Source: a virus
Taxonomy: Duplodnaviria; Caudoviricetes
Strand: one strand, 5' to 3'
IMG/VR virus record: IMGVR_UViG_3300030372_004824
Span: 1 to 48,385 of that record
Length of the DNA stretch: 48,385 nt
In this document: positions 16,201 to 36,151 of the stretch, piece after piece
Layout: every line of letters begins with the position of its first letter
Position numbering within the stretch: the stretch's first letter is position 1
The notes under the pieces: model-generated
What the model saw: the letters and a program-made list of their open reading frames with translations, nothing else
The model's database searches: none
Told to the model about the DNA's origin: nothing
Program-made: the position numbers and the translations under genes

Positions 16201-18542
16201 CTTTTAAAACTGGTAATTCATTTAACGTTTTTTATTCTAAATATAACAATAGTGCTTTGTCTCAAATAGTAGATTTGTTTAATTCTAAAAGTGTAGATGA
16301 AGAGTATTTTATTAGATTTGCACAAACAAACGCCGCTGCACCTCAATCATCTTCAAATAAATATAGAATATTTAATATGGAGCTTGATAACTCTACTCCA
16401 CAAAAACTTATGTTTTCTGTAGAAGGTAAATTTGGTAGCGATGTTTCTCAATTTAACATATCTCAAGTTCAAGATCATAGTGCTGGTGTAATTGATGGTG
16501 TTAACTTTATAATATTAAAAGAAAAAATAGAAGACTCTGCTAGATTTGAAGGTAGGTTTTTTGTAAAAATTCTTAGAGATGAACATTATAATCAATTTGT
16601 AACGTCAAGTATAACGCCTACTGATACTAATATAAATTATACAACAAGTCCAAGTACTACTAAAAAAATATATTACTATGAGTCTGTTACAGATACTAGA
16701 TTTAATACAGTAGCTCATCATGGTAATGGTACTGCAAATGGAGCAGAGATATGGGGTCTTAATAGTAATTACGATGATTTTACTGATTATGATGGTCTTA
16801 GTGCTAGTTATCCTTTTATGGACGATTCAACAACATATCCTTCTGGACAGGCTGGTGGTGATTTAAATGCTTTTTTTGAGTGTGAAAAATCAATAATAGA
16901 AGCTGTTGGTGATTTTGATTATGACAGTGCTTTTACTGGTCAGTTTGGGTATGATGAAAAAGGTTTCGGTACAATAAAAAGCTGGAGAGCTTATTTTAGA
17001 GGCCTTAATACAGCTATTGATCCAGACGCTTCTTCTAGCGACAGGGTAAATACTTTACATATAGAAAATGATAGAGCTAACGCTAAATTTGAAGATATTT
17101 GGTATTTTAATTCTACTAAATATTCTTATAATCTACCTTATTATACTGGTTTTGAAGTTAGCGTAGATTATCCTATAAAAAATAGTACTATTGTTCACGC
17201 TGACTGGCAAACTAAAACAGCTGTTACAAACTATGCTAACTCTGCTATAATAAACGTTAGTTTTGGTGGTATAGAGCCGGAAGTAAATACAGGTTGGCCT
17301 GATGATGGTACTAATGCTTCTCCACATTATCCTTATTATGATAGTAAATTTTTTGATTTAGAAAACCACACTACTTTTAAACCAACACAAGAAGCATTTA
17401 TTAAAAAAATAGCTAGTGGTAGTCAGTTTAGATTTGCTGAAGATCCTAATGGAGAAGTTTATACAATAACAGATGTAGTTGTAAGTTATTTAATAAACTA
17501 TGACAATTTATGTGAAGCAGAAAACCAATTACCTCCAAGTAATTATAATCATCATGCTAGACAAGCTGAAATAATAGGAAATAATTTTAATAGTAGTGTT
17601 GGAAATTTAGTAGAGTATGATTCTCCAAACGTACCAACAACAACTCCTGGAACTGGTAATTATCATTTTAGAACACCTACTTTTTATTCTGCTCCTAATT
17701 TTTCTGTAAATTATAGTATGGTTTTAGACAAGCCGCTTGGTTGGAACCCTATTGGAACTCCAGGATCAGCTATAACTGGTGGTTTAGAAATAGAATTAGC
17801 CGCTTCTAGTGGTACTCAAATTACTCAAAATAGTGGATTATTTAGTTTAAGAGTAGATAGTATAACTGGTACTACGCCTGCTGGAGATACTGTAAGCGTA
17901 GAAGAAGGTATGGTTTTAGACGGTCACAATGACGGTGGAAGTAGTTTTGTAGAATTTACAATAAAACCAATTGTAACAAGTATTGATTTTGACGGAACAT
18001 ATTATAATTTAAAATTAAGATGTTATAGCGGTGATGTAACTAACGGGGCCTTGCCAACTGGAACAGGAGCGGGTAAAGTTGGTGATATTGCTGCGGCTGA
18101 TGATTTGATATTTAAACAATATTATATGAATGGTATGTCTCCTAATTCTGCTAAAAATTTAAACTGGTTTAGACAAGGTGGTGAATCTGAAATAAATTCT
18201 GGAGTAATGGCATTAGGATATACAATAGAGTTTTTATCTGTTGAAGAAGAAGAAAGTCCAGAGCTACCATCTAGTCCTGCTATTTGGGAAACAGAACCTA
18301 AAGAAGATAAAAAATTAAATGTTTATTACGAAGCAAGTGATTATTACAAAATATCTGAAGATCCTGCAGATTTATCAAGCATAATACCAGTTGGTTCAAC
18401 AGTAGAACACGCAAACAGTGGCGCTATACCTTCTAATACAATTATTGATTCAATTGCTGCTGATGGTACAATAACATTATCTAATAACGCTAGTGTACAA
18501 CCAGGTACAATAGCAACACATATAGAAGACAGATTTAATTAA
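13221..18542 (+). CDS. Tail stabilization / muzzle protein, N-terminal part
   Basis: GKMNKDLDERLV.NGEYR N-terminus, LFFTDG.NEPKKINI, AYRYKYKDGEYS.FSPFS, GNRIIYGNY and YQVGVVYSDKYGRQTPV blocks as recalled for crAss-like stabilization proteins. Confidence 0.75.
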   Translation: MPEIKHNFTTGKMNKDLDERLVQNGEYRHATNIQVSTSDDSDVGSVQNILGNSLIENLEYLPNNTTCLGSIADEKNDKIYWFLLGDTLDATDLVNGDYEDTTTTIYTQTDWDTFGETGIVTQDEWTLVADGPVTQLGHGMSIDAIDGVLKRDNSNLGTNSSARQKVDVINGVEYTVSYDRKYTGGASTETNIFMDFGNGNQGLAISTENSGSFVTVTDTFTAAFTGEMFFRIYFIGDMEGEIDNVTISTSAKTSRILEYDKANDEINPVFVDIDNSVLKFSENKITAINIIDDLLFFTDGINEPKKINIQRSKDNTTDGNSFTTITDYSNTSFPAKEEHITVIKKAPINAPTIQYNYFRDPSKANTGIISISDTYAPGPHTLINSSKGLINDFATLSVGDTFQTIIETDINFINEFVLNWQNGTNVILKAFDDNGNPPIVPLQNYDIKGFITNWSNNEFVNTNELYDFENVSNQTNWQVVTQDETYSFDNTDPASADNQKLVFYTHDGVDGNEILDNRNYEISFELETFGGNLQGDLKVFLFNNTTGTNQYVEVDELTNLANTNTGVYTYTIDPNVYNLNAFTNYANSLVFEANDTNGTLFNGVVTNVSVTRVDAQLAKVEIEITSIPDTPPSVSAGNTSLNYVIDIYEDFDNIFSSKFSRIAYRYKYKDGEYSFFSPFSSAIFSAGVFQYDPVEGYNLGMQNTIKDIIVKNLDNNLPSDVDAIDILYKEDNSSAVYLVDTLKTSDGIFSYKIETDTVKNILPENQLLRTFDNVPIKAKAQEVIGNRIIYGNYQQNYDLEYYNDITSQNETYNLVLDTKIKSNNNSTNSGLPSIKSSRDYQVGVVYSDKYGRQTPVLSSSSATNEVQLLSARQLNSFEVTINSNGHPVNAEYFKFYVKDISGDYFNLAMDRWFDAEDGNIWLSFPSSDRNKIDIDDYLLLKKGIETNTVDLTTKNKYKVIDIKNEAPRFIKANSMLISQKRHAASSPLFTAEAPFKTGNSFNVFYSKYNNSALSQIVDLFNSKSVDEEYFIRFAQTNAAAPQSSSNKYRIFNMELDNSTPQKLMFSVEGKFGSDVSQFNISQVQDHSAGVIDGVNFIILKEKIEDSARFEGRFFVKILRDEHYNQFVTSSITPTDTNINYTTSPSTTKKIYYYESVTDTRFNTVAHHGNGTANGAEIWGLNSNYDDFTDYDGLSASYPFMDDSTTYPSGQAGGDLNAFFECEKSIIEAVGDFDYDSAFTGQFGYDEKGFGTIKSWRAYFRGLNTAIDPDASSSDRVNTLHIENDRANAKFEDIWYFNSTKYSYNLPYYTGFEVSVDYPIKNSTIVHADWQTKTAVTNYANSAIINVSFGGIEPEVNTGWPDDGTNASPHYPYYDSKFFDLENHTTFKPTQEAFIKKIASGSQFRFAEDPNGEVYTITDVVVSYLINYDNLCEAENQLPPSNYNHHARQAEIIGNNFNSSVGNLVEYDSPNVPTTTPGTGNYHFRTPTFYSAPNFSVNYSMVLDKPLGWNPIGTPGSAITGGLEIELAASSGTQITQNSGLFSLRVDSITGTTPAGDTVSVEEGMVLDGHNDGGSSFVEFTIKPIVTSIDFDGTYYNLKLRCYSGDVTNGALPTGTGAGKVGDIAAADDLIFKQYYMNGMSPNSAKNLNWFRQGGESEINSGVMALGYTIEFLSVEEEESPELPSSPAIWETEPKEDKKLNVYYEASDYYKISEDPADLSSIIPVGSTVEHANSGAIPSNTIIDSIAADGTITLSNNASVQPGTIATHIEDRFN

Positions 18543-18543
18543 T

Positions 18544-20244
18544 ATGACATATCAAGTACAAAATAATATAAACTTAAACGATTTGTTAAAAATAACAAGA
18601 CCGGATGGTAGTATTGTTTATGTAAAAATTACTGGTATTGGCGCTTTAGATCCTGCTGGAGCAACAAATCAATTTACTTTAGATTCTAATACTCATAATT
18701 TTACTTATACATTAGACTGGCATAATTGTTATTCTTTTGGTAATGGTGTTGAGTCAAATAGAATACGAGATGGTTTTAATAAAATGTTATTAGCTCCTGG
18801 CGTAAAAGTTTCTGCAGAGTTTGATGATTATAAAAAAGAAGAAAGAAAAAATAGTTTAATATATTCTGGAATATATAACAAGTCAAATAGTTTTAACGAA
18901 ATAAATCAGTTTAATTTAGCAGAAAAAATTACAAAAGATATAAACCCAACATACGGTAGTATACAAAAACTGCACACTAGAGATTCTGATTTAACAGTAC
19001 TTTGTGAAGATAAAGTATTAAAGGTATTAGCAAATAAAGATGCACTATTTAATGCTGATGGCAACATACAGTTATTATCTAACGAAAGAGTTTTGGGTCA
19101 AGTTATACCTTATGTAGGTGAGTATGGTATATCAAAAAATCCAGAATCATTTGTTGCAGAGGCTTACAGATCTTATTTTACTGATAAACAAAGAGGTGTT
19201 GTCTTAAGATTATCAAGAGATGGTTTAAGCCCAATATCTTTACATGGTATGAAAGATTATTTTAAAGATAATTTAAAAACATCTGATTTATTAATTGGTG
19301 GTTACGATAAGAAAAAAGATCAGTATAATTTAACTTTAAACGATACAACTGTTAGTTTTCAAGAAAATGTAAAGGGTTGGACAAGTTTTAAAACTTACAC
19401 ACCTGAAGATAGTATTAGCTGTTCAAGTGATTATTATACTTTTAAAAACGGACAAATATATTTACATCACGATGATAGTGTAGATAGAAATGAGTTTTAT
19501 GGCGTGCCTAATGATTCGCAAATAACTTTATTACTTAACGACGCGCCTAGCGTTATTAAAAACTTTGAAACTATAAGTTACGAAGGTACTCAAGCTAAAA
19601 TAGCAGTAACAACAGAAACTGGAACTGATTTAAGAGATCAAGATGATAGTTATTACAATTTAGAAGAAAAACCTGGTTGGGTGTTAGATAGTTTATCTAC
19701 AGATAAAAACGCTGGCAAAGTACATGAGTTTATAGAAAAAGAAGGTAAATGGTTTAATTATATAAAAGGTGATGATATTCCAACAGACTATAGCTCAAAT
19801 CAATTACAAGGTATAGGTATTATATCACAAGACACTGTTTTAACAGAAACTGATTCTCAAGGTGTTGTCACGGTTTTAGATGAAGTTGTTATAACTTTTA
19901 ATGAAGACATTAATATATCTTTATCTTTAGAAGATACTATTTATTATGTTATACTCGACGATATTGGTGATGGTGACGTTATTGATAGTGATGATTTAGA
20001 AGAATATAGTTTAGAAATAAAGTCAATTGGTAAAAACACAATTACAGTAGCCCACGACAATGTTCAAATTCCACCAGTAGCAAATATATTTGAACAAGGT
20101 GATTTTGTGTTATTTAAAAAGAACTCTTTATTTAACAAATCAGGTGTTACAGGTTATTATGCAGAAGCAACATTTACAAACAATGCAAAAGACAAAGCAG
20201 AATTATTTTCTGTAAGTTCACAAATAAACGAAAGTAGCAAATAA
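18544..20244 (+). CDS. Tail stabilization / muzzle protein, C-terminal part encoded as a separate ORF
   Basis: WHNCYSFGNGVESNRIRD, YGSIQKLHTRD, GEYGISKNPESF, YFTDKQRG and KEGKWFNYI beta-propeller-like blocks. Confidence 0.75.
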   Translation: MTYQVQNNINLNDLLKITRPDGSIVYVKITGIGALDPAGATNQFTLDSNTHNFTYTLDWHNCYSFGNGVESNRIRDGFNKMLLAPGVKVSAEFDDYKKEERKNSLIYSGIYNKSNSFNEINQFNLAEKITKDINPTYGSIQKLHTRDSDLTVLCEDKVLKVLANKDALFNADGNIQLLSNERVLGQVIPYVGEYGISKNPESFVAEAYRSYFTDKQRGVVLRLSRDGLSPISLHGMKDYFKDNLKTSDLLIGGYDKKKDQYNLTLNDTTVSFQENVKGWTSFKTYTPEDSISCSSDYYTFKNGQIYLHHDDSVDRNEFYGVPNDSQITLLLNDAPSVIKNFETISYEGTQAKIAVTTETGTDLRDQDDSYYNLEEKPGWVLDSLSTDKNAGKVHEFIEKEGKWFNYIKGDDIPTDYSSNQLQGIGIISQDTVLTETDSQGVVTVLDEVVITFNEDINISLSLEDTIYYVILDDIGDGDVIDSDDLEEYSLEIKSIGKNTITVAHDNVQIPPVANIFEQGDFVLFKKNSLFNKSGVTGYYAEATFTNNAKDKAELFSVSSQINESSK

Positions 20245-21944: not shown

Positions 21945-22364
21945 ATGAATAATAAAATAATTTTTCGTAGTTTTAACAACTCGGATTACAATACAGTTTC
22001 AAAATGGTGGGACTGGTGGTGGGGTAAAAAAGGTGCTATAGAAAGAGAATATCTACCACATAATAATTATTGCTATATAATTGGCAAAAAAAAAGAAATG
22101 GTAGCCGCTGGGTTTTTGTTTGTTGATAAAACTGCACCAGTTGGCTATTTAACTTATGTAGTTTCAAACCCTAACTACAGACAAAAAGATAGAAGAAGTA
22201 TTATAGAACAATTAATACTTAACATAGAAAGACAAGCAAAACAAGAAGGTATAAAGTTTATATTTACTGTTTGCGGAAATATACACATGGAAAATATTCA
22301 CAATAAATTAAGCTGGACAATAGATAAAACTGCACCAGCTTACGAAACTTTTAAATACATATAA
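21945..22364 (+). CDS. GNAT-fold acetyltransferase-like protein at the head of the ejection-protein cluster
   Basis: IFRSF..SDY, MVAAGFLF, YLTYVVSNPNYR, and AKQEGIKFIF strand/helix pattern of GNAT proteins. Confidence 0.6.
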   Translation: MNNKIIFRSFNNSDYNTVSKWWDWWWGKKGAIEREYLPHNNYCYIIGKKKEMVAAGFLFVDKTAPVGYLTYVVSNPNYRQKDRRSIIEQLILNIERQAKQEGIKFIFTVCGNIHMENIHNKLSWTIDKTAPAYETFKYI

Positions 22365-22366
22365 AT

Positions 22367-23077
22367 ATGGGAGGAAGAGCAAGAAGACGTATTGCTAGAG
22401 AATCAATGGAATTTGCAAAACAGCAAGTTGCTGCTTATAAGCAAGAACAAGCTATTCAAAGAAACATTTTAGAAAAACAAAAAGAAGAGTATAAACAATT
22501 TGAGTTTGTTAATCCGTATAGAGATTTACAAAACTACTATGAAGACATGGAAAATGTTTTTGAAGACTTAACTGTAGATACTCAAGCTGCAGACTTTCAA
22601 ATGGAAAGAGGCGAGCAACAAAGAGCTAATATATTACAAGCTCTTAGAGGCGCTGCTGGCGGTAGTGGTATAGCTAATCTAGCACAATCTTTAGCTAATC
22701 AAGGTGTAATACAAGCTGCACAAGTATCTGCTAATATAGCTCAACAAGAAAGACAAAATCAAGTACTAGCGGCAAGAGCTGCTAGTCAAATACAAACCGC
22801 TGAAAGACGTGGTATGGCCGCTGCTGATATGGCTCAAAGAGGTGGTGAAGCAATGGTTCAACAAGCAGAAATGTCAAGAGTAAACACTTTACTTGGTTTA
22901 GAGTTTAGTGGTATGGCCGGTGCTAACGCTGGTTTACAAGCTGCTTATGCAAATCAAATGGGTGCTTTTGGATTAGACGCTCAAATGTTAGGCGCTCAAA
23001 TGGGTATGTATGGTCAAATAATCGGCGGTCTTGCTCAAGGCGGTGGTAAAGTTGGTGCCGCGATGGTTGGAGCATAA
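22367..23077 (+). CDS. Small ejection (internal virion) protein
   Basis: Gln/Ala/Gly/Met-rich helical protein with a Gly-rich hydrophobic C-terminus; position analogous to T7 gp14 / P22 gp7. Confidence 0.6.
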   Translation: MGGRARRRIARESMEFAKQQVAAYKQEQAIQRNILEKQKEEYKQFEFVNPYRDLQNYYEDMENVFEDLTVDTQAADFQMERGEQQRANILQALRGAAGGSGIANLAQSLANQGVIQAAQVSANIAQQERQNQVLAARAASQIQTAERRGMAAADMAQRGGEAMVQQAEMSRVNTLLGLEFSGMAGANAGLQAAYANQMGAFGLDAQMLGAQMGMYGQIIGGLAQGGGKVGAAMVGA

Positions 23078-23093
23078 TAATAAAATAATAAAT

Positions 23094-24956
23094 ATGGCAA
23101 AAAAACAAGGATTACCATCTATAATAGGAGGAACAGATGCTACGTTAGTAAACGCTGCTTATAAAGCTGCTATGGCTAACGTGCCTAGAAGTTTACAACC
23201 TGTGTATGATCAAATAGGAAGATCTTTTGAAAAAGGTATGAGTGCTTTAGGTAAAGGATTAGGAGATTTAGCATCAGCAGCTGGTGATATAGGTGCGGCT
23301 TTAATAGAAAAACAAAAAGAAGAAAACGAAGACACAGGTGTAACAAGAAGTTATGAAAACGATACGGACTTTACGAGTACTGACGATCCTACAACTGATC
23401 CCGATAAAACAACAACATCTACATTTGAATCTACTCAACAGCATACAGATAGCTCTGGAAACACAGTTGATTTTGAAATAAACAGTTTAGATGATGAATT
23501 AGCAAAAATAAATAAAGAACTTAGATCTTTAGCCCCTATTATTGGTAGTAGTGAATTAAAAGGTGATGAAAGAAAAAAAGCAAGAAGAGCTTTAAAAGAA
23601 AGAAGAGATAATATATTTGAGTCAGCAAAATCTTATGAAGTTGCTTCTAAGTTAATAGGTGAATATTTAAAACCAGAAAATTTTGTTATAAATCCTGAAA
23701 GAATTGATGACGCTAATTTTTTAAGAGCTTTAAAAAATAATGGTAGTCCTTTAGGTGATGGTTCTAGAGCTTTAAAGGGTTATGATAAGAAAGGTAATAT
23801 TATATTTTCTTATGTAGATAAAAATGGTAAACCTATACAAGATTCTTTTGGTAACAACCTTACTGTTGATCAAAATAGTGTTAAACGTTTAATAGTACCT
23901 GCTAACGGTGTGGTTAGTGTTGATTTTGCTAATAGTGAAAAATCTGCTCTTGACAATGGTTTAAAAGGTATAACGCTAACCGATCCTGACAAAAAAGTTA
24001 TTGCTCAATCAGCTACAGGAAAAATAAAGACATCTGCTGATTTTGAGTGGGCTGCTAGTATAAAGTATGGTGATAAATCTTTATTTGAAGATTTAAACTC
24101 TGCAGATTTAAGTAAAACTTCTTTTAGGTTATTTAGCTCGTTAAGCGTAGCTGAATTTGATGCAGGTAAAAAAGACGGTGTAGTAGATGTTAGTGATTTT
24201 GCTAATAACCCAGATAATTATAAAAAATTAAAATCTGCTTTGTTAAATCCAAGAGATCCTAATTTTAACTTAGGAGTTTCAAAAGCTTTTTTAAGCGATT
24301 TTGTAAAAGATCAATCTACTGCAATAAACGCTCGAGGTTTACAAAAGTATGTACCATCAGGAAATGATAGCGATGGCACTGCGACAGAAAGAGAAAACGC
24401 TCGTAAAGTACAATCTTTTGTTGCAACTGCTGATGATGTACAAGCTGGAGAAGAAGCGCCTCCTATAAATTTAGGTGGTGGTAATTTCCTAAGTATTAAA
24501 AAAGATCCTAATGTAGATCAAAACGATCCAAAAGGCGGTTTAATACTTGAACTAACTAGCACAGATGAAGATACAGAAGAAAGAACAGTTCGACAAGTTA
24601 ATTACCAAAGCGCAATAGACATGCTAACAAATAATAGTGGCTTTAGAGCTAAAGATGTATTTAAAGATCAAACTTGGTATGTTGCTGGAGCAACTAAGTT
24701 TAACTCTGCAAACGCGTTAGGTACTTTAAGTGAATCAGAAAGAAAAGATGATGATGCTGTTATTCCTATACTTAGAAATAGCCTTAGAAGAAAATATCCA
24801 GATAAGTTTAAAGTAAGTGAGCCTAGAGCTTTATTTGCACAAGAAATAAAAATAGAAGTCAGAGACACAGAACCGCCTAAGTCAATTACTTTAAATGTTA
24901 ACGATGCTGACTTTAATAAAAACTTAGATAACTTTATCAACGAAAACGCTGAATAA
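23094..24956 (+). CDS. Middle ejection protein (start revised to ATG 23094)
   Basis: ATG 23094 has an AAATAATAAAT leader and avoids overlap with the previous gene; N-terminal Gly/Ala amphipathic segment. Confidence 0.55.
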   Translation: MAKKQGLPSIIGGTDATLVNAAYKAAMANVPRSLQPVYDQIGRSFEKGMSALGKGLGDLASAAGDIGAALIEKQKEENEDTGVTRSYENDTDFTSTDDPTTDPDKTTTSTFESTQQHTDSSGNTVDFEINSLDDELAKINKELRSLAPIIGSSELKGDERKKARRALKERRDNIFESAKSYEVASKLIGEYLKPENFVINPERIDDANFLRALKNNGSPLGDGSRALKGYDKKGNIIFSYVDKNGKPIQDSFGNNLTVDQNSVKRLIVPANGVVSVDFANSEKSALDNGLKGITLTDPDKKVIAQSATGKIKTSADFEWAASIKYGDKSLFEDLNSADLSKTSFRLFSSLSVAEFDAGKKDGVVDVSDFANNPDNYKKLKSALLNPRDPNFNLGVSKAFLSDFVKDQSTAINARGLQKYVPSGNDSDGTATERENARKVQSFVATADDVQAGEEAPPINLGGGNFLSIKKDPNVDQNDPKGGLILELTSTDEDTEERTVRQVNYQSAIDMLTNNSGFRAKDVFKDQTWYVAGATKFNSANALGTLSESERKDDDAVIPILRNSLRRKYPDKFKVSEPRALFAQEIKIEVRDTEPPKSITLNVNDADFNKNLDNFINENAE

Positions 24957-27900
24957 ATGTTTACATTAGGAGATAATCAATATACTTTAGAACAGCTTAA
25001 AGGTTTTGCTTCTAAAAGAGGCGAAGACTTTGACTCTTACTTTACATCATTGCAGCAAATAGGCTTGCAAGGTGAGGGTTATACTCCTAAAATAGAAGGT
25101 AGTAAAACAGCTGAATTACCTCAAATAACACCTGCTGACGTTGATTTAACCGAAGAACAGTTTGTAACAAAATATAAAGATGTTTTAAGTATGATGGGCT
25201 TTGAAGTTAAACAAGCAAATCGTCGTATACCTATAGGAAGAGGCTTAGGAGTTGGTATTCCAGGTACAGATGCTATAACTATTACTTCGCCGCCTGATGA
25301 AAACAAAAACACTGTTTCAGAAACTTTTGGTGTAGACGTGCTTAACCTTTTTATGGGTGAACAGCATAGGGGTAAAGCTAGTAAAATTAATGATTTTATT
25401 AAACAACATGTTGACAAAAGTAATATTGATTTAAACTTTTTTTCAGCTGGTTATCAAACTGCAAGAGAAAAATACGACTCTGTAGATTTTGAAAATTTAA
25501 GCGCAAAAGAAATTTTTGAAATACAAAACGATATATCTAATGATATTTTTAATAGTGGTGATGCTGTTACTAAAGTTGTTGCTAATATAGCAGTTGGCAT
25601 GCAAGATTTGCAAAAAAATACTATTAACAGCTTAAGTAAAAAATATAATGTAACAGATATAAGTCAAAGCTCTGAAGCTATGAACGATTACACTTTTATA
25701 ATGGGTAAAGAGTTTGATAAAAGACTTGATGAAAGTGAAGATTTAAAAAGATTAGAAGAACTTACTGGAAAAATAGCTCAAAATGTTTTTAAACCTGCTT
25801 TAAAACCACAATTAGCAAAAGAAGAAGAAGACGAAGTTCTTAGCGAAACAACAGTTGGTAGAGCAATAATTAAAGGTTTTAGAAGAAATCCAAAACTAGA
25901 TAAATTATTTAGAGCTATTTACGGAACTGCAGGTGTTAAATTTCCAAAAGCAGCTGCTGATTTTACTAAATTAAATATTGACGAAAGAATAGGAAATATA
26001 AGTGCTGAACTAGAAGAATTAAAACAAAAAGATCCTAACGAAAAAATTAACGTTATAGGTGTTTTTAACCAAAAATCTCCTGAGTTAAATGTAAAAGGTG
26101 GTATATATACTGTTGCTGAAAGAATAGAGCAAATAAACAATATTATGCCTAAGTTAGAAGAACAAGCTAGCCAACAATTTGCTAAAGGAAAAGAATATCA
26201 AGAAAAACTTCAAAAGCTTAATGTAGTAGAGCTTTATGATGAAGATTTAAGTATTGATGTAGACGGCGAAAAGCTATATAGTATGATAGGTGATCAAGGT
26301 GTCCAAATGCTTAGCGTTATGCTTAGTGGTGGTGGTTCTACTATGGTGCAAGAAGCTGGTAATGCTTACGCGGAAATAACATCGCAAAAGGCAGCTATGA
26401 AAATGTTTAAAAATTTAGAGCCAAAAGAAGCTCTAAAAGCTTTTTATAAAGAAGATATTAAAACTCAAGCCGATGCTATATTAGAGTTAGTTAAAAATGG
26501 TGAATCTGACACAGACATAGCTTTTAGTATTGGTGGTACTAATGCTGGTTTAGATATGGCTGGTGCGTATATAGGATTTAGTAGAGCAGTAAAGTTTTTA
26601 CCAAAAAAATTAACAAGACAGTTTATAGACGGAGAGTATATAAAGTTTTTACAAGGTGGTTATAAATCTTTTGGTAAAGATGTAGCTATTTCTATGTTTG
26701 CAGAAACTTTAACAGAAACTTTGCAAGAAGGTGTTAATTTGTTCGGCGTATCAAGAGCTACTGGAGTTAATCCTAAAGTAAAAGAAATTAAAAAAAGAGT
26801 ATTAGAAGCAGGTACTCAAGCTATGCTTGCTACAGGGCCACTAGTTGGTGGTGGTAAAATTGTAACTACAGGTTCAAAGGAGCTTTTAACACAATTTGTA
26901 GCACATACAAATCCTGATCATAAAAGAAATTTTATAAACCAAGCAAGAAAAAAAGTAGATTTAGAATACAAAAACGGCAAAAGATCAAAAGAAGATAGAG
27001 ACGCAATACATGATCAGCTTGATATGATGGACGAGTATACTAACCTAGATCTTCTTGGTGATAATAAAAAATCAAAAGAAGATTATATTAACGCTGCAAC
27101 AGAAGATGTTGTTTTAAGAAGACAACAAGAAAAATTAGAGTCTGAAAAAAAGACTCTTGAAAAGTTTGGCGGTGTTGATCCTATGGGTGGAAGAGGTAGT
27201 GTTGCTATTGATTTAGAGTTAAATAAAATTAAGAAAAAAAGAGAAGCTCTTAGTAAGAAAAAAATGAAAGCCGTACGAACAGGTAATTATTTGCAGAGTC
27301 TTAAAAGCATAAGCTACGCAATAAACAACACACAAGACGGTGTGTTAGGTGATAAGACAATAACTAGTTTTCAAACCGTTGAAGAAGCTTTAGAATATAT
27401 CAATGGTAAAAAATATAATATCACTAAAAGCCAAAAAGATAGACTTGAAAACGGGCAAAGTACTGCTATTACTTTTGGAAATGAAACTATAGCTGTAAAA
27501 GACAATGCTATTGGCTTGATTAATAAAAATGATCCATATTCTACTAATTCAATACATCATGACGGTTTACATTTAATACTAAATGCGTTTAATGATAAAC
27601 AACTAAAAGAAGCAAGAGATTTATTAACTAAAGAGCTTGGTAAATCTACTGATCCGTTACAAATGAAAATGAACGAAGATATAGCTGCTAGATTTTTACA
27701 ATATGTAGCTGATCCAGACTATACAGGTCGTGCTTTAGATGAAGAGTTTTTTACAGCAGTATCTGATGTTTACAAAGCTTATACTTTAGCAAATCTTAAC
27801 ACAGAAAGCGCTGGTGTGTTTGATCTTTTAGCTGAAGGATTTAGAAATATTTTTAGAAAAAACACTGGCATGAACTTAGATTTAGAAAAGCTAGATCCTG

Positions 27901-30900
27901 GTACTATGTTAGAGTTTATAAAACAGTATAATGCTTTTAACGGTAAAACTGGTGTTGCTGCTCCTTCAAGAACAGCACTAGTAGCTTCAGAAGTTGATGA
28001 TAAAAATGCTAAAGAGTCTAAAGAAGCTTCAGATCAAGTACAGCAAATATTTGAACAAAGAGGTGTTGCTGGCGCTATGGATATTATAGATTTATTTAAA
28101 CCTATAACAGCTAGAATAGCAGAAGAACGTAGAAATGCGCCTAATTACGACAAAGAGCTTTTAATGAGTGAAATAGAAATAGGTAAGCGTGGAATATTTG
28201 ATTTAATTAGAGATTACAAAGTTGAGTCTGGTGTGCCATTAGCCGCTTATATTAACACTAATTTAAGAAGAAGAGCCATAGAAGCTTCTAGAAGAGTTTT
28301 AGGTGAAGAGTTTACAGAGGACGTTTCAACAAGAGTTGATATAGCCGAAAGAGAAGTAGATGTAGAAATATCAAGACCACAAAGAAAAAAAATTAGATTA
28401 GCTGAAAGATTAGGTGTTAAAAATAAAGTTGATGAAATTATATCTAAAAAAATATCAGACTTAGATATAAATAATTTAAACTTTAAAAACTTAAAAAACT
28501 TAGTACCTGAAATAGTTGGTGAGCTTTATGGCATATCGCCTAAAAAAATAGAAAATTTAGCTAATATAACTAAAAAAGAGTTACAGTCAGCTCAAATGTT
28601 TATTAATAAAAATGCTGATTTATTAATAGCTATGCTACCAGAAGGCGCTACATCAGGCGGTACAGCAACTGGCGTGCCTAAAACTTTATTAAACGAATTT
28701 TATACTAAAACTAGTAGAGCTAAAATGGCTGAAACTGGCACTAAAGCTGGTTTAGCAATACAAGTTAAAAATAAAAACATAGATAAAACTAAGTTTTTAG
28801 AAGTGTTTGGCATTGTTGACGGTAAACCTGTACGTACAGATAGAAACACATCAGCTCGAGTTTTAGCATTAGCTAATCAAACAGGCAAAATGCTTACAAA
28901 CCAAGCTGTAAGACAACAGTTGTTAGACGATGGCCAAGTGGCTAGCGCTTTGTTTAAAATAGAAGACGGTAAATCTCCTGCTATGGAATCAAAGGCTGCC
29001 GCTAATTTAACGCCTGAAAAGCTTATGGAGTTTATGTCTAGAGTGCCTAGTGTTGGTAATATACTGTCACCATTAATGCCATTATATAGAAAAAAATATT
29101 TGACTGAAGCTATGGACATTGTATATAGCGGTGTTTTAAGTACTGACGAAATAGTAGATTTAACAAACGATATACATAAGATAATAAAGCAATATGTAAA
29201 AGAGCCAGTTGATAATGTTAGAATAACTAAAAAACCTGAAGATTTTAGTAAGTATTTAATTGACGAATTATTAAATTTTGACTTAAGCATATTAGAAATA
29301 ACAGATGTTAAAGAAACTAAAAATGAGCTTTTTTTAGATTTAGATTTAATTAAAGAACAAAGAGCCGGTGCTGTAATTGCTGTTAAAAAATTAATTGATA
29401 AACATGGTATCGAGCAAGCTCTTAGATATGCTTTAGCTTTTATGAAACCTATGTACGCTGGCGCTTCTAAAATAGCTGACGGTAGATATGACGTAAACAG
29501 TGAAGGTGATGTGTTTTATATAGGCGACGAAGCTTTTGAGCAATTAGAAATATACAAAAGACAAGAAAAAGCAAAGCCAGAAGGAGCGTTGTCACAAGTT
29601 TTAATGAACAGAGCTCAAGTATTTAAAAATGTACCTGACTTTGTGAACGTTTTAAATAAAGGTGTACCTGGTTTAAATATAGTTTATACAGGCGCAAACT
29701 TAAGCACGGCAATTTTTAATTATAATGGTAAACCTATAAACGTAAACACTAGCATTATAGATCAAACTAGTCAAAACTTTATAAATAAAATAAAAAACGA
29801 AGGAGAAGCTGCTGTTAAAAAACAAAGTTTAAAAGAAGCTAAAGAAGCTAGAGAGTTAATTAATGATCTTATAACTATATTTAATGAAGAAAATAGCTTG
29901 TCTAATAAAAATTTAGCTATGATGCTTTTTAGCTTAAACTCTAACATGCAAACTCCTATGCGTAGAGCGGCTAACTTATTTTATGTTTCAGAAAACTATA
30001 ACACATTTAAAAATCCAGGCAGCCAATTAGAGTATGAACACATGATACCTGCTAACTGGATGATGATTAAAACTTTGCAGGCTAATCTAGCAGAAGGCGG
30101 TATAAAAAACTTAGATAATTTTTATAAAAACTATAACGTAGCTATTATACCTAAAGAAATGAATACTATTATCAACTCTCAAGAAGTTGGTTATAAATCT
30201 ACTATGCCTAGCGATTATAAGTTAACAGATCCTGCTTGGAAAAGATATTATAACAATAGAACTTTAGCAAAAAAAGGTATGGTGGCTATTAGAGAGTTAG
30301 GTACTGATAAGCTTGTAGGTTCAAATTTTACAAAAGTTAATTTTATAAAAGATCCTAAAAATGCTCAAACTTTTGAAAAAGCAATACAAAAAAGTAGAGA
30401 AGTAGGTGTTGAAAGCAAAGGTATAAGTATTTTAGATTTTGATGACACTCTAGCTGTTAGCCAATCGTTAGTTAAGTTTACTAGACCAGATGGTACAACA
30501 GGAACTTTAACACCTGCGCAATATGCTAGTACTTATGAAAATTTATTAGGTCAAGGTTATGTGTTTGATTTTTCTGAGTTTAACAAAGTTATAAAAGGTA
30601 GAACAGCGCCGTTGTTTCAAAAAGCTTTAAAACTTGCTAATAAGTTTGGTACAAAAAACATGTTTGTTTTAACTGCTAGGCCACCTGAGTCTGCTACTGC
30701 AATATTTGAATTTTTAAAAGCAAACGGCTTAAATATACCTTTAAAAAATATAACTGGTCTTGCAAACTCTACAGCTGAAGCAAAAGCGTTATGGGTTGCA
30801 GATAAAGTTGCAGATGGTTATAATGATTTTTATTTTGCTGACGATGCTTTGCAGAACGTGCAAGCGGTTAAAAACATATTAGATCAATTTGATGTTAAAT

Positions 30901-32969
30901 CAAAAGTTAGACAAGCAAAAGGTGTTGAAAGTAAATCTGCTATAAACAAAGCGTTTAATGAAATACTTGAAAACGTTACTGGTATTGGCGCTGATAAAAG
31001 ATTTGGTGCTGCTAAAGCTAGAAAACGTGGCTCTAGCAAAGGTAAGTTTAGATTTTTTATACCACCATCACACGAAGATTTTGTAGGTTTATTGTATAAC
31101 TTTATGGGCAAAGGTAGAACAGGTGATAGTCATAGAGATTTTTTTGAAAAAACTTTAATAAAGCCTTTGAATAGAGCCTTTAGAGAGCTTGATACTGCTA
31201 GACAGTCTATAGCAAACGATTACAAGTCTTTAAACAAGCAAATGCCTGAAGTTAAAAAGTTATTTAAAAAAGAAGTGCCAACGGGTGATTTTACTTATGA
31301 AGACGCTATAAGAGTTTATTTGTTTGATAAGCACGGGCATACTGTACCTGGTTTAAGTAAAAAAGATCAAGCAGATCTTGTTAGTTTAGTACGTAACGAC
31401 GAAAAATTATTAGCTTATGCTGAAGCTTTAAATATATTATCAAAACAAGAAAGCTATGTTACACCTACAGAGACTTGGGACACAGGTGATATTAGAGTTG
31501 ATTTAGACGATGCAACTGGTAGAGTTGGTAGAGCTCAGTTTTTTAAAGAGTTTAGTGATAACGTTGATATTATATTTTCTACAGAAAACTTAAACAAAAT
31601 TGAAGCTGCTTACGGTAAAGAGATGAGAGACTCTATACTAGATATGCTTTATAGAATACAAACAGGTAGAAATAGACCTCAAGGTCAAGACGGTTATGTA
31701 AACGTGTTTGTAGATTATTTAAATGGATCTGTTAGTACTGTAATGTTTTTTAATGTTAGATCAGCTATATTACAGCAATTATCTTTTGTAAACTTTATAA
31801 ACTTTGCTGATAATAACTTATATGCTGCTGCAAAAGCTTTTGCAAATCAAAAACAATATTGGGCTGATTGGGCTATGTTATTTAACTCTGATTTTATGAA
31901 ACAAAGGCGTGGCGGTATTAGAACAGACGTTAACGGCGCTGAATTAGCACAAGCTGTTGCAAAATCAGATAGTCCAACACGTACTGTTATACAAAAGTTA
32001 TTACAAATAGGTTTTTTACCTACACAAATTGGTGATAATATTGCAATTGCTTCTGGTGGTGCTACAATGTATAGAAATAGACTTAATACTTATTTAAAAC
32101 AAGGTTTAAGTAAAAAAGAAGCTCAAGAAAAAGCTTTTGCTGATTTTCAAGAAATAGCAGAGGCTACACAGCAGTCCGCAAGACCTGATATGGTTTCAAA
32201 ACAACAGTCTTCTGTTGCTGGTAAAATAATATTAAATTTTCAAAACGTTACTTCACAGTATAATAGATTAATGAAAAAATCTTTTTCAGATTTAATTAAT
32301 AGAAGAATATCTAAAGGTTATACCACTCAAGCCCAAAGTGATTTAGCTAATGTAAATAAAATATTATATTATGGTGCTGTACAAAATATAATATTCTATA
32401 GTTTACAGTCTGCTTTATTTATGATGTTATTTGATGATGACGATGAAGAGTTTTTTGATAAGAAAAAAGAAAGAGTTTTAAACGGTAGCTTAGACAGTAT
32501 ATTAAGAGGCGCTGGTATATATGGTGCTATTGCTTCTACGTTAAAAAACGTTGTTAGACAGTTTAGAAAACAACGTGAGTCTAAAAGACCAGATATGACT
32601 GCTGTTGCTATAGAAGCCTTAAACTTATCACCTGTTATAGGTATTAAAGCTAGTAGAATAGTAGGTGCAGAAAAAACCTTAGTATATGATAAGAGAGCTA
32701 TAGAAAAAATGGGTGATTTTGATATTGATAATCCACATTTTGACGCATATACAGCTTATATTGAAGCAATACTTAATTTACCATTAAATAGAATTTATAG
32801 AAAAACTATAAACACTAGAAATGCTTTTGACTCGCAATATCAAGCATATCAAAGAGTATTGTTTTTTAGTGGTTATACTAATTATAACTTAGGTATAGAA
32901 AACAAAGAAGTTGAAAGATACAAAAAAAGAAGAAAAAAGAAACAAGGTAAAAAAATACATATTTATTAA
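24957..32969 (+). CDS. Giant ejection / polyvalent protein (2670 aa) with zincin-like, sigma70-like, HNH-like and HAD phosphatase segments
   Basis: HHDGLH...DEEFF (27555-27752), sigma region 2-like block (28080-28300), EHMIP...WKRY (30036-30250), DFDDT...LTAR...FADD (30435-30845); last gene of the ejection triad. Confidence 0.75.
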   Translation: MFTLGDNQYTLEQLKGFASKRGEDFDSYFTSLQQIGLQGEGYTPKIEGSKTAELPQITPADVDLTEEQFVTKYKDVLSMMGFEVKQANRRIPIGRGLGVGIPGTDAITITSPPDENKNTVSETFGVDVLNLFMGEQHRGKASKINDFIKQHVDKSNIDLNFFSAGYQTAREKYDSVDFENLSAKEIFEIQNDISNDIFNSGDAVTKVVANIAVGMQDLQKNTINSLSKKYNVTDISQSSEAMNDYTFIMGKEFDKRLDESEDLKRLEELTGKIAQNVFKPALKPQLAKEEEDEVLSETTVGRAIIKGFRRNPKLDKLFRAIYGTAGVKFPKAAADFTKLNIDERIGNISAELEELKQKDPNEKINVIGVFNQKSPELNVKGGIYTVAERIEQINNIMPKLEEQASQQFAKGKEYQEKLQKLNVVELYDEDLSIDVDGEKLYSMIGDQGVQMLSVMLSGGGSTMVQEAGNAYAEITSQKAAMKMFKNLEPKEALKAFYKEDIKTQADAILELVKNGESDTDIAFSIGGTNAGLDMAGAYIGFSRAVKFLPKKLTRQFIDGEYIKFLQGGYKSFGKDVAISMFAETLTETLQEGVNLFGVSRATGVNPKVKEIKKRVLEAGTQAMLATGPLVGGGKIVTTGSKELLTQFVAHTNPDHKRNFINQARKKVDLEYKNGKRSKEDRDAIHDQLDMMDEYTNLDLLGDNKKSKEDYINAATEDVVLRRQQEKLESEKKTLEKFGGVDPMGGRGSVAIDLELNKIKKKREALSKKKMKAVRTGNYLQSLKSISYAINNTQDGVLGDKTITSFQTVEEALEYINGKKYNITKSQKDRLENGQSTAITFGNETIAVKDNAIGLINKNDPYSTNSIHHDGLHLILNAFNDKQLKEARDLLTKELGKSTDPLQMKMNEDIAARFLQYVADPDYTGRALDEEFFTAVSDVYKAYTLANLNTESAGVFDLLAEGFRNIFRKNTGMNLDLEKLDPGTMLEFIKQYNAFNGKTGVAAPSRTALVASEVDDKNAKESKEASDQVQQIFEQRGVAGAMDIIDLFKPITARIAEERRNAPNYDKELLMSEIEIGKRGIFDLIRDYKVESGVPLAAYINTNLRRRAIEASRRVLGEEFTEDVSTRVDIAEREVDVEISRPQRKKIRLAERLGVKNKVDEIISKKISDLDINNLNFKNLKNLVPEIVGELYGISPKKIENLANITKKELQSAQMFINKNADLLIAMLPEGATSGGTATGVPKTLLNEFYTKTSRAKMAETGTKAGLAIQVKNKNIDKTKFLEVFGIVDGKPVRTDRNTSARVLALANQTGKMLTNQAVRQQLLDDGQVASALFKIEDGKSPAMESKAAANLTPEKLMEFMSRVPSVGNILSPLMPLYRKKYLTEAMDIVYSGVLSTDEIVDLTNDIHKIIKQYVKEPVDNVRITKKPEDFSKYLIDELLNFDLSILEITDVKETKNELFLDLDLIKEQRAGAVIAVKKLIDKHGIEQALRYALAFMKPMYAGASKIADGRYDVNSEGDVFYIGDEAFEQLEIYKRQEKAKPEGALSQVLMNRAQVFKNVPDFVNVLNKGVPGLNIVYTGANLSTAIFNYNGKPINVNTSIIDQTSQNFINKIKNEGEAAVKKQSLKEAKEARELINDLITIFNEENSLSNKNLAMMLFSLNSNMQTPMRRAANLFYVSENYNTFKNPGSQLEYEHMIPANWMMIKTLQANLAEGGIKNLDNFYKNYNVAIIPKEMNTIINSQEVGYKSTMPSDYKLTDPAWKRYYNNRTLAKKGMVAIRELGTDKLVGSNFTKVNFIKDPKNAQTFEKAIQKSREVGVESKGISILDFDDTLAVSQSLVKFTRPDGTTGTLTPAQYASTYENLLGQGYVFDFSEFNKVIKGRTAPLFQKALKLANKFGTKNMFVLTARPPESATAIFEFLKANGLNIPLKNITGLANSTAEAKALWVADKVADGYNDFYFADDALQNVQAVKNILDQFDVKSKVRQAKGVESKSAINKAFNEILENVTGIGADKRFGAAKARKRGSSKGKFRFFIPPSHEDFVGLLYNFMGKGRTGDSHRDFFEKTLIKPLNRAFRELDTARQSIANDYKSLNKQMPEVKKLFKKEVPTGDFTYEDAIRVYLFDKHGHTVPGLSKKDQADLVSLVRNDEKLLAYAEALNILSKQESYVTPTETWDTGDIRVDLDDATGRVGRAQFFKEFSDNVDIIFSTENLNKIEAAYGKEMRDSILDMLYRIQTGRNRPQGQDGYVNVFVDYLNGSVSTVMFFNVRSAILQQLSFVNFINFADNNLYAAAKAFANQKQYWADWAMLFNSDFMKQRRGGIRTDVNGAELAQAVAKSDSPTRTVIQKLLQIGFLPTQIGDNIAIASGGATMYRNRLNTYLKQGLSKKEAQEKAFADFQEIAEATQQSARPDMVSKQQSSVAGKIILNFQNVTSQYNRLMKKSFSDLINRRISKGYTTQAQSDLANVNKILYYGAVQNIIFYSLQSALFMMLFDDDDEEFFDKKKERVLNGSLDSILRGAGIYGAIASTLKNVVRQFRKQRESKRPDMTAVAIEALNLSPVIGIKASRIVGAEKTLVYDKRAIEKMGDFDIDNPHFDAYTAYIEAILNLPLNRIYRKTINTRNAFDSQYQAYQRVLFFSGYTNYNLGIENKEVERYKKRRKKKQGKKIHIY

Positions 32970-34018
32970 TGAAAAAACTATTTATACTATTATTAACTGC
33001 TTTAACTGCTTGTGCGGCGCCTAAAAAGTGTTGCGGCCAAGATATTAAAAAAATATTTAAATTTTCAACATTTTATGCGGCTGCTAATGGTGGTACTTCA
33101 ATATCAGATGTTGACGTGTTTTCTGTTACAAACGGTTTACAAACATCAACAATTAAAACACCTTATGATTATAATTTAGTTTTAGGTATACGTAAAATAG
33201 CTAGATTTGGCTATGAAAACAGAGCACAAACATTTTACGACGGTACTGAAAATTCATGGTCAGATGGAGCTAACATAGGTAAAGTATCTGGCTTAGAGTT
33301 TTTATTTGAAGTTGATTATAGCAGACAACAAGGCAACGAGTATATTGATCAACATCATTTTGTTAGATTTGTAGAAGACAAATATATATTAAAAGGTGAA
33401 TACTTAGAAGATGGTTTTGCAGATGTTAAGTATGTTGAAACATCTGAAAGATATAGATATAAAATAAATAATAAGTTGTCTTTTAACGTTGGTGCTGTTC
33501 AAAGATTATCTGAGCCTTATGGTTACGATCCACTAGAAGAGTGGAAATTAGATAATGGCGGTATACACTATACGTATTTAGCTTTGCAAGAAGGTTACAA
33601 TGTAGATGTATTTAAATCTGAATATACAGATCCAAACGGTAGTATAGTAGCTACATCAGCTGATGTTTGGGAACAAGTTGTAATACCTACCGTGTTAGCA
33701 AATTATACCGAAAGAAAACGTAACGAATTAGATCAGATAATACAACACTCGCTAGTGTTAGGTTTTGATTATTATCATTACACTAAAATGTTTTGGACAC
33801 ATGCTTGGGCTAACGTTATGCCTTGGCACTATGATGATGACGGTGAGTTTTCATATCATAAATATAATAATGGACAATGGCTTGATTATAGTGGTGGTTT
33901 AATATTTGGTTATAAGCTAAATAGGTCTTTAGGGCTGTTTGCAGAAGGCAAGTATAACAAATATTGGAATAGAGAGTGGTATGACTTTAAATTTGGAGTA
34001 AATTACGTAATCTTTTAA
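32969..34018 (+). CDS. Secreted outer-membrane beta-barrel-like protein
   Basis: Signal peptide MKKLFILLLTALTAC, alternating aromatic/Gly beta strands, C-terminal FKFGVNYVIF resembling a BAM beta-signal. Confidence 0.7.
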   Translation: MKKLFILLLTALTACAAPKKCCGQDIKKIFKFSTFYAAANGGTSISDVDVFSVTNGLQTSTIKTPYDYNLVLGIRKIARFGYENRAQTFYDGTENSWSDGANIGKVSGLEFLFEVDYSRQQGNEYIDQHHFVRFVEDKYILKGEYLEDGFADVKYVETSERYRYKINNKLSFNVGAVQRLSEPYGYDPLEEWKLDNGGIHYTYLALQEGYNVDVFKSEYTDPNGSIVATSADVWEQVVIPTVLANYTERKRNELDQIIQHSLVLGFDYYHYTKMFWTHAWANVMPWHYDDDGEFSYHKYNNGQWLDYSGGLIFGYKLNRSLGLFAEGKYNKYWNREWYDFKFGVNYVIF

Positions 34019-34320: not shown

Positions 34321-34671
34321 ATGAAAAAATTAGACATGTCAAAGGTCGTTTATGTTTTGATGATGATAGTAGTGTTTACTATATCACAAGCTTTCGGCCA
34401 AATAACAGTAACACACTTTAATGCCGAGTGGAATAATACTAATAAAGTTGAGTGGTTTACTAAACTAGATGATTGTGATTTAGCAGATGTTGATATTGTT
34501 AAAGAGCCAAAACTACAAGAAAAACACAAAATAGTTATAGTGCCTACTATAGTTATATTTAAAGACGGTGAAGAAATAAAAAGGTATCAAGCAGACCTTA
34601 GTTTTAAAATGCTTGCAACAAGAAAAGAAATACAAGAATTTATTAACGAACAAATAATGAGCGACTTTTAG
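34321..34671 (+). CDS. Exported thioredoxin-fold protein lacking CxxC
   Basis: Signal peptide ending AFG-Q; HFNAEWNNTNK in place of WCGPCK; VDI...IVPTIVIFKDGEEIKR cis-Pro motif. Confidence 0.7.
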   Translation: MKKLDMSKVVYVLMMIVVFTISQAFGQITVTHFNAEWNNTNKVEWFTKLDDCDLADVDIVKEPKLQEKHKIVIVPTIVIFKDGEEIKRYQADLSFKMLATRKEIQEFINEQIMSDF

Positions 34672-35329: not shown

Positions 35330-35631
35330 TGGGGTCGCCTATAGTAAAACGTAAAGATCCTGTAAAAGGCACAGGTAAAAAACCAAAAGGTACTGGTAGA
35401 CGTTTATATACAGACGAAAACCCAAAAGATACCGTAAGTATTAAATTTGCTACTCCTAGTGATGCTAGAGCAACCGTAGCTAAAGTTAAAAGAATAAATA
35501 AGCCTTATGCGCGCAAAATACAAATATTAACCGTAGGAGAGCAAAGAGCAAAAGTTATGGGCAAGTCACAAGTTGCTAGTATATTTAAACGTGGAAAAGA
35601 AACAATAAGAAAAGCTAGAAAAAATGTTTAA
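35329..35631 (+). CDS. Small highly basic protein (LYTDENPKDT motif)
   Basis: 100 aa, TAATG-coupled to the previous gene. Confidence 0.6.
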   Translation: MGSPIVKRKDPVKGTGKKPKGTGRRLYTDENPKDTVSIKFATPSDARATVAKVKRINKPYARKIQILTVGEQRAKVMGKSQVASIFKRGKETIRKARKNV

Positions 35632-36151
35632 AGATTTTGATACAAAGCCGTTTAAAAAAAAGAAACCACCTGTAGATAGTGGCTACACTACTCGTACAGA
35701 AATAAATGAGCTTAAAAAAATACCTTTAAATAAAAAGTTTGTAAAAGACAATGATAATATAGAATCTGCTTTTGCTAAAACAGCTAAAGATAATAATGTT
35801 GAAGATTATGATAAAAGTATTGCTGCAAATTTTATTAAAAAATCAGCACCAATAATATTAGATTTAAAAAAACATCATAATAGAAAAAGACCTTATGAAT
35901 TAGATAGCGCTTTAAAAGCTATAGTATTAAAATCTATGCAAACACCGTCATATCCATCTGGACACTCTGTTCAAGGCACTGGCATAGCAAAATTATTAGC
36001 AGATAAATATCCAAAAGCTAAATCTGCTTTTTTAAAAACAGGTAAAAATATATCTTATAGTCGTAGAGTTGCCCGCGCTCACTATAAGTCAGACAGTAAG
36101 GTGGGCGAAGAAATAGGTAACTCAATGTATAAATTTATAAAAAACAATTAA
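35624..36151 (+). CDS. PAP2 / haloperoxidase-superfamily phosphatase, soluble
   Basis: All three motifs are present: K-x6-RP (KKHHNRKRP), PSGH (TPSYPSGHS) and SR-x5-H-x3-D (SRRVARAHYKSD); no TM segments or signal peptide. Confidence 0.85.
   Translation: MFKDFDTKPFKKKKPPVDSGYTTRTEINELKKIPLNKKFVKDNDNIESAFAKTAKDNNVEDYDKSIAANFIKKSAPIILDLKKHHNRKRPYELDSALKAIVLKSMQTPSYPSGHSVQGTGIAKLLADKYPKAKSAFLKTGKNISYSRRVARAHYKSDSKVGEEIGNSMYKFIKNN

Follow-up and report, generated by a model that had tools for sequence, protein, structure and literature searches.

We analyzed a 48,385-nucleotide stretch of viral DNA (hereafter the window, meaning the whole stretch at positions 1 to 48,385 of the virus record IMGVR_UViG_3300030372_004824). 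The record is estimated to be 83% complete and is present in marine metagenome runs from several studies. The TerL, portal, capsid, and muzzle genes of the window match crAss-like families (PHROGs/Pfam), the membership feature of Crassvirales. The muzzle genes are followed by a GNAT acetyltransferase gene, two predicted ejection genes, and a 2670-aa ORF encoding a giant modular protein, for which we delineated the following features:

22367..24956, + strand: pair of genes for putative ejection proteins of 236 aa and about 620-641 aa (assigned by location and composition)
24957..32969, + strand: giant modular protein, 2670 aa (ORF), the last of three predicted ejection/cargo genes, downstream of the muzzle genes
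24957..27341, + strand: N-terminal region, aa 1-795, without family match and inherited with the zincin lineage
27342..27941, + strand: zincin-like metallopeptidase domain, H868-D869-x-x-H872 plus E930 (alignment, model)
28008..28022, + strand: joint 1, AKESK, at the end of a linker with pLDDT<50; F, M, L, T, Q, E, and others precede the Ser in relatives
28020..28304, + strand: sigma-70 region-2-like domain (fold match; weak profile matches)
28398..28958, + strand: conserved domain, fold unassigned, traveling with the sigma-like domain (confident model; 116/196 representatives)
28980..28994, + strand: joint 2, AMESK (EAK in L002); strict F-S-x in relatives
28989..30401, + strand: variable block, possibly HNH-like, containing a conserved E-H-x-x-P core at aa 1693-1698 (alignment, model)
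30405..30419, + strand: joint 3, GVESK, which overlaps the HAD start
30420..30920, + strand: HAD-family phosphatase-like domain (DFDDT at aa 1827, LTAR at 1905, FADDA at 1960)
30921..30935, + strand: joint 4, GVESK; strict F-S-x in relatives
30936..32966, + strand: conserved C-terminal domain (191/196 representatives), containing an unconserved fifth ESK (32577)

The GNAT gene (window 21945-22364) lies directly before the ejection genes and has similar genes in 19 of 74 loci; virion cargo might be a substrate of the enzyme. Located 3' of the giant gene are a 349-aa ORF with a signal-peptide-like start (32969-34018; in 34 of 74 loci), a thioredoxin-like ORF (34321-34671), and a PhoC-like acid phosphatase ORF (35624-36151). 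A GroES-like gene (1600-2190) adjoins the terminase, and the relative G004 has a GroEL (L091 75-1412). Two adjacent window ORFs of 1773 and 566 aa (within 13221-20244) match the muzzle-like phrog_14478, their region being spanned in G004 by a single 3218-aa ORF, and the capsid gene of the relative G003 consists of two ORFs of 339 and 149 aa (L097 12546-14014). DNA polymerase A was searched for and not found.

The giant protein had no match among 50,697 annotated phage records, while 1669 of the 50%-identity representatives are related to its HAD and C-terminal part at E<=1e-30. We collected relatives via four queries (the C-terminal domain, the sigma block, the zincin, and the HAD plus C-terminus) and obtained 332 protein entries, reduced to 232 by dereplication. 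Several unrelated effector domains occur in variable combinations in one polypeptide, as in polyvalent proteins. Relatives add zeta-toxin-like kinase or lytic transglycosylase modules, the kinase scoring above the cut-off in 5 of 13 relatives and LPD14 below it in 2 of 13; neither LPD nor other catalogued polyvalent domains were found in the window protein. The giant protein sequence gave no solved-structure match, Foldseek with both models returned no PDB match at E<=0.001 and one viral match that is probably a family member, and the Atlas gave only unnamed clusters or nothing.

The modules downstream of the zincin fared differently. The predicted sigma-like segment gained support from the model, in which residues 1022-1116 are predicted to fold as sigma-70 region 2: 18 of the top 20 VIA-align rows fall on this stretch, all of them titled as sigma chains or as complexes that contain sigma (Z 6.5-8.0; 72-103 residues at an rmsd of mostly 2.3-5.4 A), the profile matches to sigma factors (E 0.44-0.49) and a second fold search being weak. 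The domain is found in 86 of the 196 full-length representatives. The predicted likeness to sigma-70 domain 2 spans about 90 residues; unlike sigma-70 factors, the domain is embedded in a virion-type polyprotein, lacks a region-4 match, and is followed by a domain of unassigned fold. No region-4 row came from the fold search, which barely covered that part, and the following domain (28398..28958) had no Atlas match. Four genome matches to the sigma-like part were found, two in a Flavobacteriaceae assembly and two on short contigs of unrelated bins; judged from such sequence matches, the host of the window virus is likely a flavobacterium. The HAD domain could be confirmed, as motifs I (DxDxT), II (T/S), and IV (DD) are all present and the domain matches the polynucleotide kinase family phrog_415 (E 2e-5). 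The HNH-like nuclease proposed between the two has a nearly invariant Y-E-H and P (42 rows) and a model (pTM 0.72) with strand-strand-helix order, but it stays a lead because its best nuclease match, T5 endonuclease, reaches only Z 3.2, and the variable block has no Pfam, PHROG, or NCBIfam match. The C-terminal domain and the sigma-like part likewise had no match in these three collections.

The original prediction held that the tripeptide ESK, recurring next to a zincin-like site, marks the cleavage sites of an injected polyprotein. All five copies are located as claimed (aa 1020, 1344, 1819, 1991, and 2541; nt 28014, 28986, 30411, 30927, and 32577). Their number is not evidence in itself: five copies against 0.97 expected gives p=0.003, yet among 1908 tripeptides ESK comes only 9th, and shuffled sequences average 5.5 tripeptides that are equally extreme, which rules out the count as an argument. 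The first four sites fit the longer pattern [AG]-x-E-S-K (4 against 0.14 expected, for a pattern picked after inspection of the data). We rejected the fifth copy (32577) as a site: it is internal to the conserved C-terminal domain, and its counterpart in close relatives is EAK or KAD. The copies were also said to fall at domain boundaries, and indeed the homology blocks (blast) of relatives begin or end at window sites 1, 2, and 4, but site 3 overlaps the HAD start. In two AlphaFold models covering sites 1-3, these sites are within or border segments with pLDDT<50, which is expected regardless at sites 2 and 3, both being close to model ends; as modeled, none of the three is buried inside a folded domain.

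Alignment of the homologues showed that a short linker motif is positionally conserved at the same boundaries, and that it is not ESK as such. The relatives carry F/M/Y-S-K/R at the exact positions of joints 1, 2, and 4, and the joint tag is thus family-wide, ESK being one clade's form of a general x-S-K/E tag. Among the 232 dereplicated proteins, where the anchor pattern was found, the Ser is kept at joints 1, 2, and 4 in 80 of 84, 76 of 82, and 160 of 167 cases, respectively, Phe preceding it in 75 of the 82 joint-2 cases and 154 of the 167 joint-4 cases. Joint 1 is permissive and may have E even in F-type proteins (e.g., P0064 and P0071). For joint 3, relatives frequently carry F/Y-S-K/R or Y-S-E a few residues ahead of the point where the HAD domain begins; the window's clade has lost the aromatic residue there, and G-x-E-S-K overlaps the HAD start instead, an ESKGI at the joint-3 place being found also in the F-S-K-type proteins L008, L010, and L030. 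We observed that 245 of 1212 homology breakpoints lie <=10 aa from F-S-K/R, against 36.7 expected (6.7x; 128 representatives of an earlier set), the sites not being independent as the same few joints dominate the count; seven other patterns gave no enrichment apart from a slight one for F/M/L/Y-A-K/R (55 against 46 expected). F-S-K/R is 5x denser downstream than upstream of the zincin (1.61 vs 0.30 per 1000 aa in 205 proteins), and ES[KR] is absent from both predicted ejection genes upstream of the giant ORF (22367..24956). The five inserts that we found by pattern between the HAD and C-terminal domains all have F-S-K at their end, and four of them near the start. Ser is encoded by TCN at joint 1 and by AGY at joint 4, and the tag is therefore not one DNA repeat, which excludes a DNA-level repeat or recombination word as its origin.

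The tags fall into classes that differ in the accompanying zincin. The commonest is F/M/Y-S-K/R with an HExxH zincin. The window's clade (six proteins, three representatives) has [AG]-x-E-S/A-K at all four joints together with HHDGLH, 23 of its 24 joint sites being [AG]-x-E-S-K and one A-x-E-A-K. A third set of 13 HHD[AIV][LF]H proteins, mostly found through zincin patterns and not by linker, carries mainly F/Y/M-S-E. The counts of S-E and S-K/R sites are 40 and 10 in the 13 HHD[AIV] proteins and 61 and 511 in 122 HE proteins, and the three HHDG proteins have 14 E-S-K/R sites. The joints tend to change together: an E-type tag is present at joints 3 and 4 alike in 9 of 93 proteins, where a permutation that ignores kinship predicts 1.08, and proteins whose joint 4 is FSE contain, at other places, 30 aromatic/Met-S-E and 21 -S-K/R sites, compared with 30 and 320 where joint 4 is FSK/R. 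Bulk E and K content is equal between the tag classes, and a general K-to-E drift was ruled out. There are exceptions, as the HD proteins L075, L078, and P0269 have F-S-K/R after the HAD, and L031, P0148, and P0181 have FSE at joint 4 and mostly or only S-K/R elsewhere. Single proteins with several F-S-Q or F-S-N sites (P0166, P0197, and P0129) may represent extra tag classes.

In the zincin tree each HD group forms a single branch and the tag class follows the tree. On the other hand, the HD groups are scattered in the trees built from the C-terminal domain (FSE changing 8 times) and from the HAD domain (6 changes); these trees, like that of the upstream 236-aa gene, are of fast-evolving sequences with many weakly supported branches. 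The independent switches are few: the two HD clades and L015, which has multi-joint S-E with an HE zincin on its own branch of the zincin tree, plus P0179, P0242, and P0168, similar to L015 in tags and zincin and counted as separate only by their differing HExxH context, outside the zincin tree. An independent-pairs test on the C-terminal tree gave four pairs on well-supported branches (p=0.125, not significant) and seven on all branches.

This pattern bears on the possibility that the tag has a structural or historical origin, as a helix N-cap or a module-shuffling seam, without any recognizing partner. A hydrophobic-Ser-x-x-Glu sequence is a helix N-cap pattern, and such an origin would agree with the helix that is predicted to start directly after joint 1, with the permissiveness of joint 1, and with the overlap of the window's joint 3 with the conserved HAD start. 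We nevertheless think it very improbable, given that F-to-E and K-to-E changes occur simultaneously at joints hundreds of residues apart and track the tree of a distant domain, that F to E takes three base changes in proteins of unchanged composition, and that an internal F-S-x-E-N in the C-terminal domain shows no clear class switch (few rows).

A partner would have to be sought in the N-terminal half. The N-terminal region has no credible Pfam, NCBIfam, or PHROG match and its blast matches are almost confined to the HH-type zincin clade; because the N-terminal ~800 aa are co-inherited with the zincin, the tag reader can be mapped to this half only, in which the zincin-like domain is the only recognizable enzyme. 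H868, H872, and E930 are invariant in 55 aligned rows and both motifs are on helices in the model, giving the two His and the downstream Glu on a second helix that characterize zincin-like MPTases. The window has, however, HDGLH in place of HExxH, and the zincin-like site of the original prediction thus stood as to its metal ligands but lacks the canonical catalytic Glu. Among the 196 full-length representatives the second motif residue is E in 187 and D in 9, and the window's HDGLH is confirmed by a contig of a second study (run X2, 27423-28622) with 0 differences over that stretch. An exchange of Glu for Asp at the zincin general base usually cuts activity sharply. Neither the fold searches nor Pfam, PHROG, and NCBIfam gave a zincin match for the window's domain, the beta strands of which are predicted at low confidence. 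We regard the domain as a zincin variant, not a canonical member, that may work in a zincin-like manner. As both HD clades have a Glu in the tag, we considered substrate-assisted catalysis in which this Glu replaces the lost one, an idea weakened by the differing Glu positions and by the HE enzymes P0130, P0170, and L015 that also pair with S-E.

We favor, with moderate confidence, the reading that the giant protein is an ejection polyprotein that processes itself, with a protease and cut sites evolving in concert. The 2670-aa protein would be packaged in the capsid and injected, and its built-in zincin-like domain would cut at the joint tags (E-S-K here; F/Y/M-S-K/R or F/Y-S-E in relatives) to give a sigma-region-2 module, an HNH-like module, a HAD phosphatase-like enzyme, and the C-terminal domain. 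Cutting may take place within the head, in the course of ejection, or after entry into the cell, and cuts after E would yield pieces of ~114, 36, 54, 19, and 77 kDa. Our guess for the bond is x|S, because the Ser is least variable and stable products are expected; by the N-end rule, an N-terminal Ser gives stable products. We infer that the tag is read by the zincin and not by some other portion of the N-terminal 1000 residues inherited with it, and that reading means cutting. The tag is a likely self-cutting signal because it changes with the zincin-like domain in the relatives, and cutting by this domain is the simplest account of a tag that flanks the modules, is denser downstream of the metallopeptidase, and changes with it. 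Both HD clades keep distinct tags despite an HDxxH without the usual base. Going by these sequence comparisons, the joint tags are probably the cut sites of a self-processing phage polyprotein. As new modules bring their own tags, the protein may be a plug-in effector cassette acting before phage gene expression. The original prediction of a releasable host-takeover toolkit is partly supported, by the conserved tag and its co-variation with the zincin; against it, ESK is just one clade's form of the tag, the fifth copy does not belong to it, the window's zincin has no canonical catalytic Glu, and the nuclease stays a lead.

The co-variation would be accounted for equally well if the zincin-like domain or the N-terminal region bound the tags without cutting, to fold, order, or thread the modules, the HD variant being a binding-only form. 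Consistent with this are the window motif without a catalytic Glu and, in the available texts, the related polyvalent proteins that are packaged whole, the N4 region needed for encapsidation (PMC5512222), and the crAss001 cargo thought to unfold for tail passage (PMC10172136). We hold binding alone to be unlikely, as HExxH is kept in 187 of the 196 full-length representatives with an invariant third metal ligand, and as the tags stand on both sides of free-standing enzyme modules, as if for release.

Another alternative is that the tags are cut by a different protease, either an A-x-E-type phage head protease or a host enzyme, and that the zincin of the window's clade is possibly dead and its sites re-routed. 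According to the available text of PMC10052503, gp245 of phage SPN3US cuts after A-X-E with Ser preferred at P1', and all four window sites fit the corresponding [AG]-x-E|S, as do nearly all joint sites of the six clade proteins (23 of 24). We find this quite improbable. The gp245 of SPN3US is described as a separate enzyme stripping N-terminal propeptides from many head proteins (PMC10052503), unlike the window family, which has internal sites in a single protein and F-S-K as the default. In the window, [AG]xES is absent from the portal, the likely scaffold, and the 620-aa ejection protein, and occurs twice in the capsid protein and once in the 236-aa protein. The tag class also does not track the neighboring gene: in the tree of the upstream 236-aa gene it is scattered, with 12 changes against 13.0 in shuffled data, and L080 (S-E) and L007 (S-K) have identical aligned rows, the muzzle tree having no second HH-type row and hence being uninformative. 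Finally, the remaining HD zincins pair with F/Y-S-E, which a dead enzyme leaves unexplained. Searches for S77 and S80 head protease genes gave 0 in 5 records per family, control searches being equally silent.

Self-processing of this kind has precedents in proposals. Autoproteolysis by zincin-like MPTase domains was proposed for polyvalent proteins (Iyer et al. 2017, PMC5512222), and N4 vRNAP, ArdC, and TraC1 carry such domains and are described there as packaged or transferred uncut. The window protein resembles those described in the available text in its several domains, one of them an internal H-[ED]-x-x-H + E domain, in its mosaic modules, and in having relatives with a zeta-toxin-like kinase, SLT, and weak LPD14 matches; that text, supplements aside, names no cut-site motif and lacks the word "sigma," and the window family differs in having a mapped tag, the class of which follows the peptidase lineage, and HDxxH variants. 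In crassviruses, the cargo block of phi14:2 (gp65-67; 10.1101/2020.03.07.982082) and crAss001 (gp45-50; PMC10172136) has a zincin-like domain, and cleavage of fused forms was suggested. The window agrees with these in its crAss-like terminase, portal, capsid, and muzzle genes, the cargo genes 3' of the muzzle, and the zincin-like cargo domain. As far as their available texts go, zincin-mediated processing is proposed or left open, uncut-packaged examples are given, and the joint tag is not mentioned in PMC5512222 (the supplements of which may list members), 10.64898/2026.04.10.717836, 10.1101/2020.03.07.982082, PMC13434306, PMC10172136, and PMC10052503. Our literature search, mostly of papers outside subscription, found no description of the joint tag or of HDxxH proteases.

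A further difference from the Crassvirales described in the available texts is that no virion RNA polymerase was detected in the window or in two complete relatives, a sigma-2-like cargo module being found instead. A motif scan found no DFD[IG]D polymerase motif in the two complete relatives (the window being 83% complete), and the motif is present in only 2 of the 232 giant-protein representatives. A DFDID stretch near the C-terminus of the giant protein (window about 32712-32730) resembles the crAss polymerase motif, likely by chance. Of the 30 ORFs scanned in the complete relatives, one is a stand-alone sigma factor, encoded in the early block of G003 (L095 923-1678) besides the cargo protein. 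Since the scan found no polymerase motif in the two relatives and one of them has a stand-alone sigma factor, these phages probably use the host RNA polymerase.

While self-cleavage has been a proposal since 2017, the papers searched gave no mapped site or code; with candidate sites, a candidate enzyme, and natural specificity variants now named, the question becomes testable with short constructs and swaps. The tag marks the module limits in a family of >1000 otherwise unannotated giant proteins, and the sigma-like module points to an infection start by an injected sigma-like piece in place of a virion polymerase. Taken in full, the picture is a tentative one that we put forward as possible: a large marine crAss-related phage family with a self-processing plug-in effector cassette, in which a protease and its three-letter code (F-S-K, F/Y-S-E, or E-S-K) would have been rewritten together several times into natural orthogonal pairs, active HDxxH metalloproteases among them, and an injected sigma-like factor would replace the virion polymerase.
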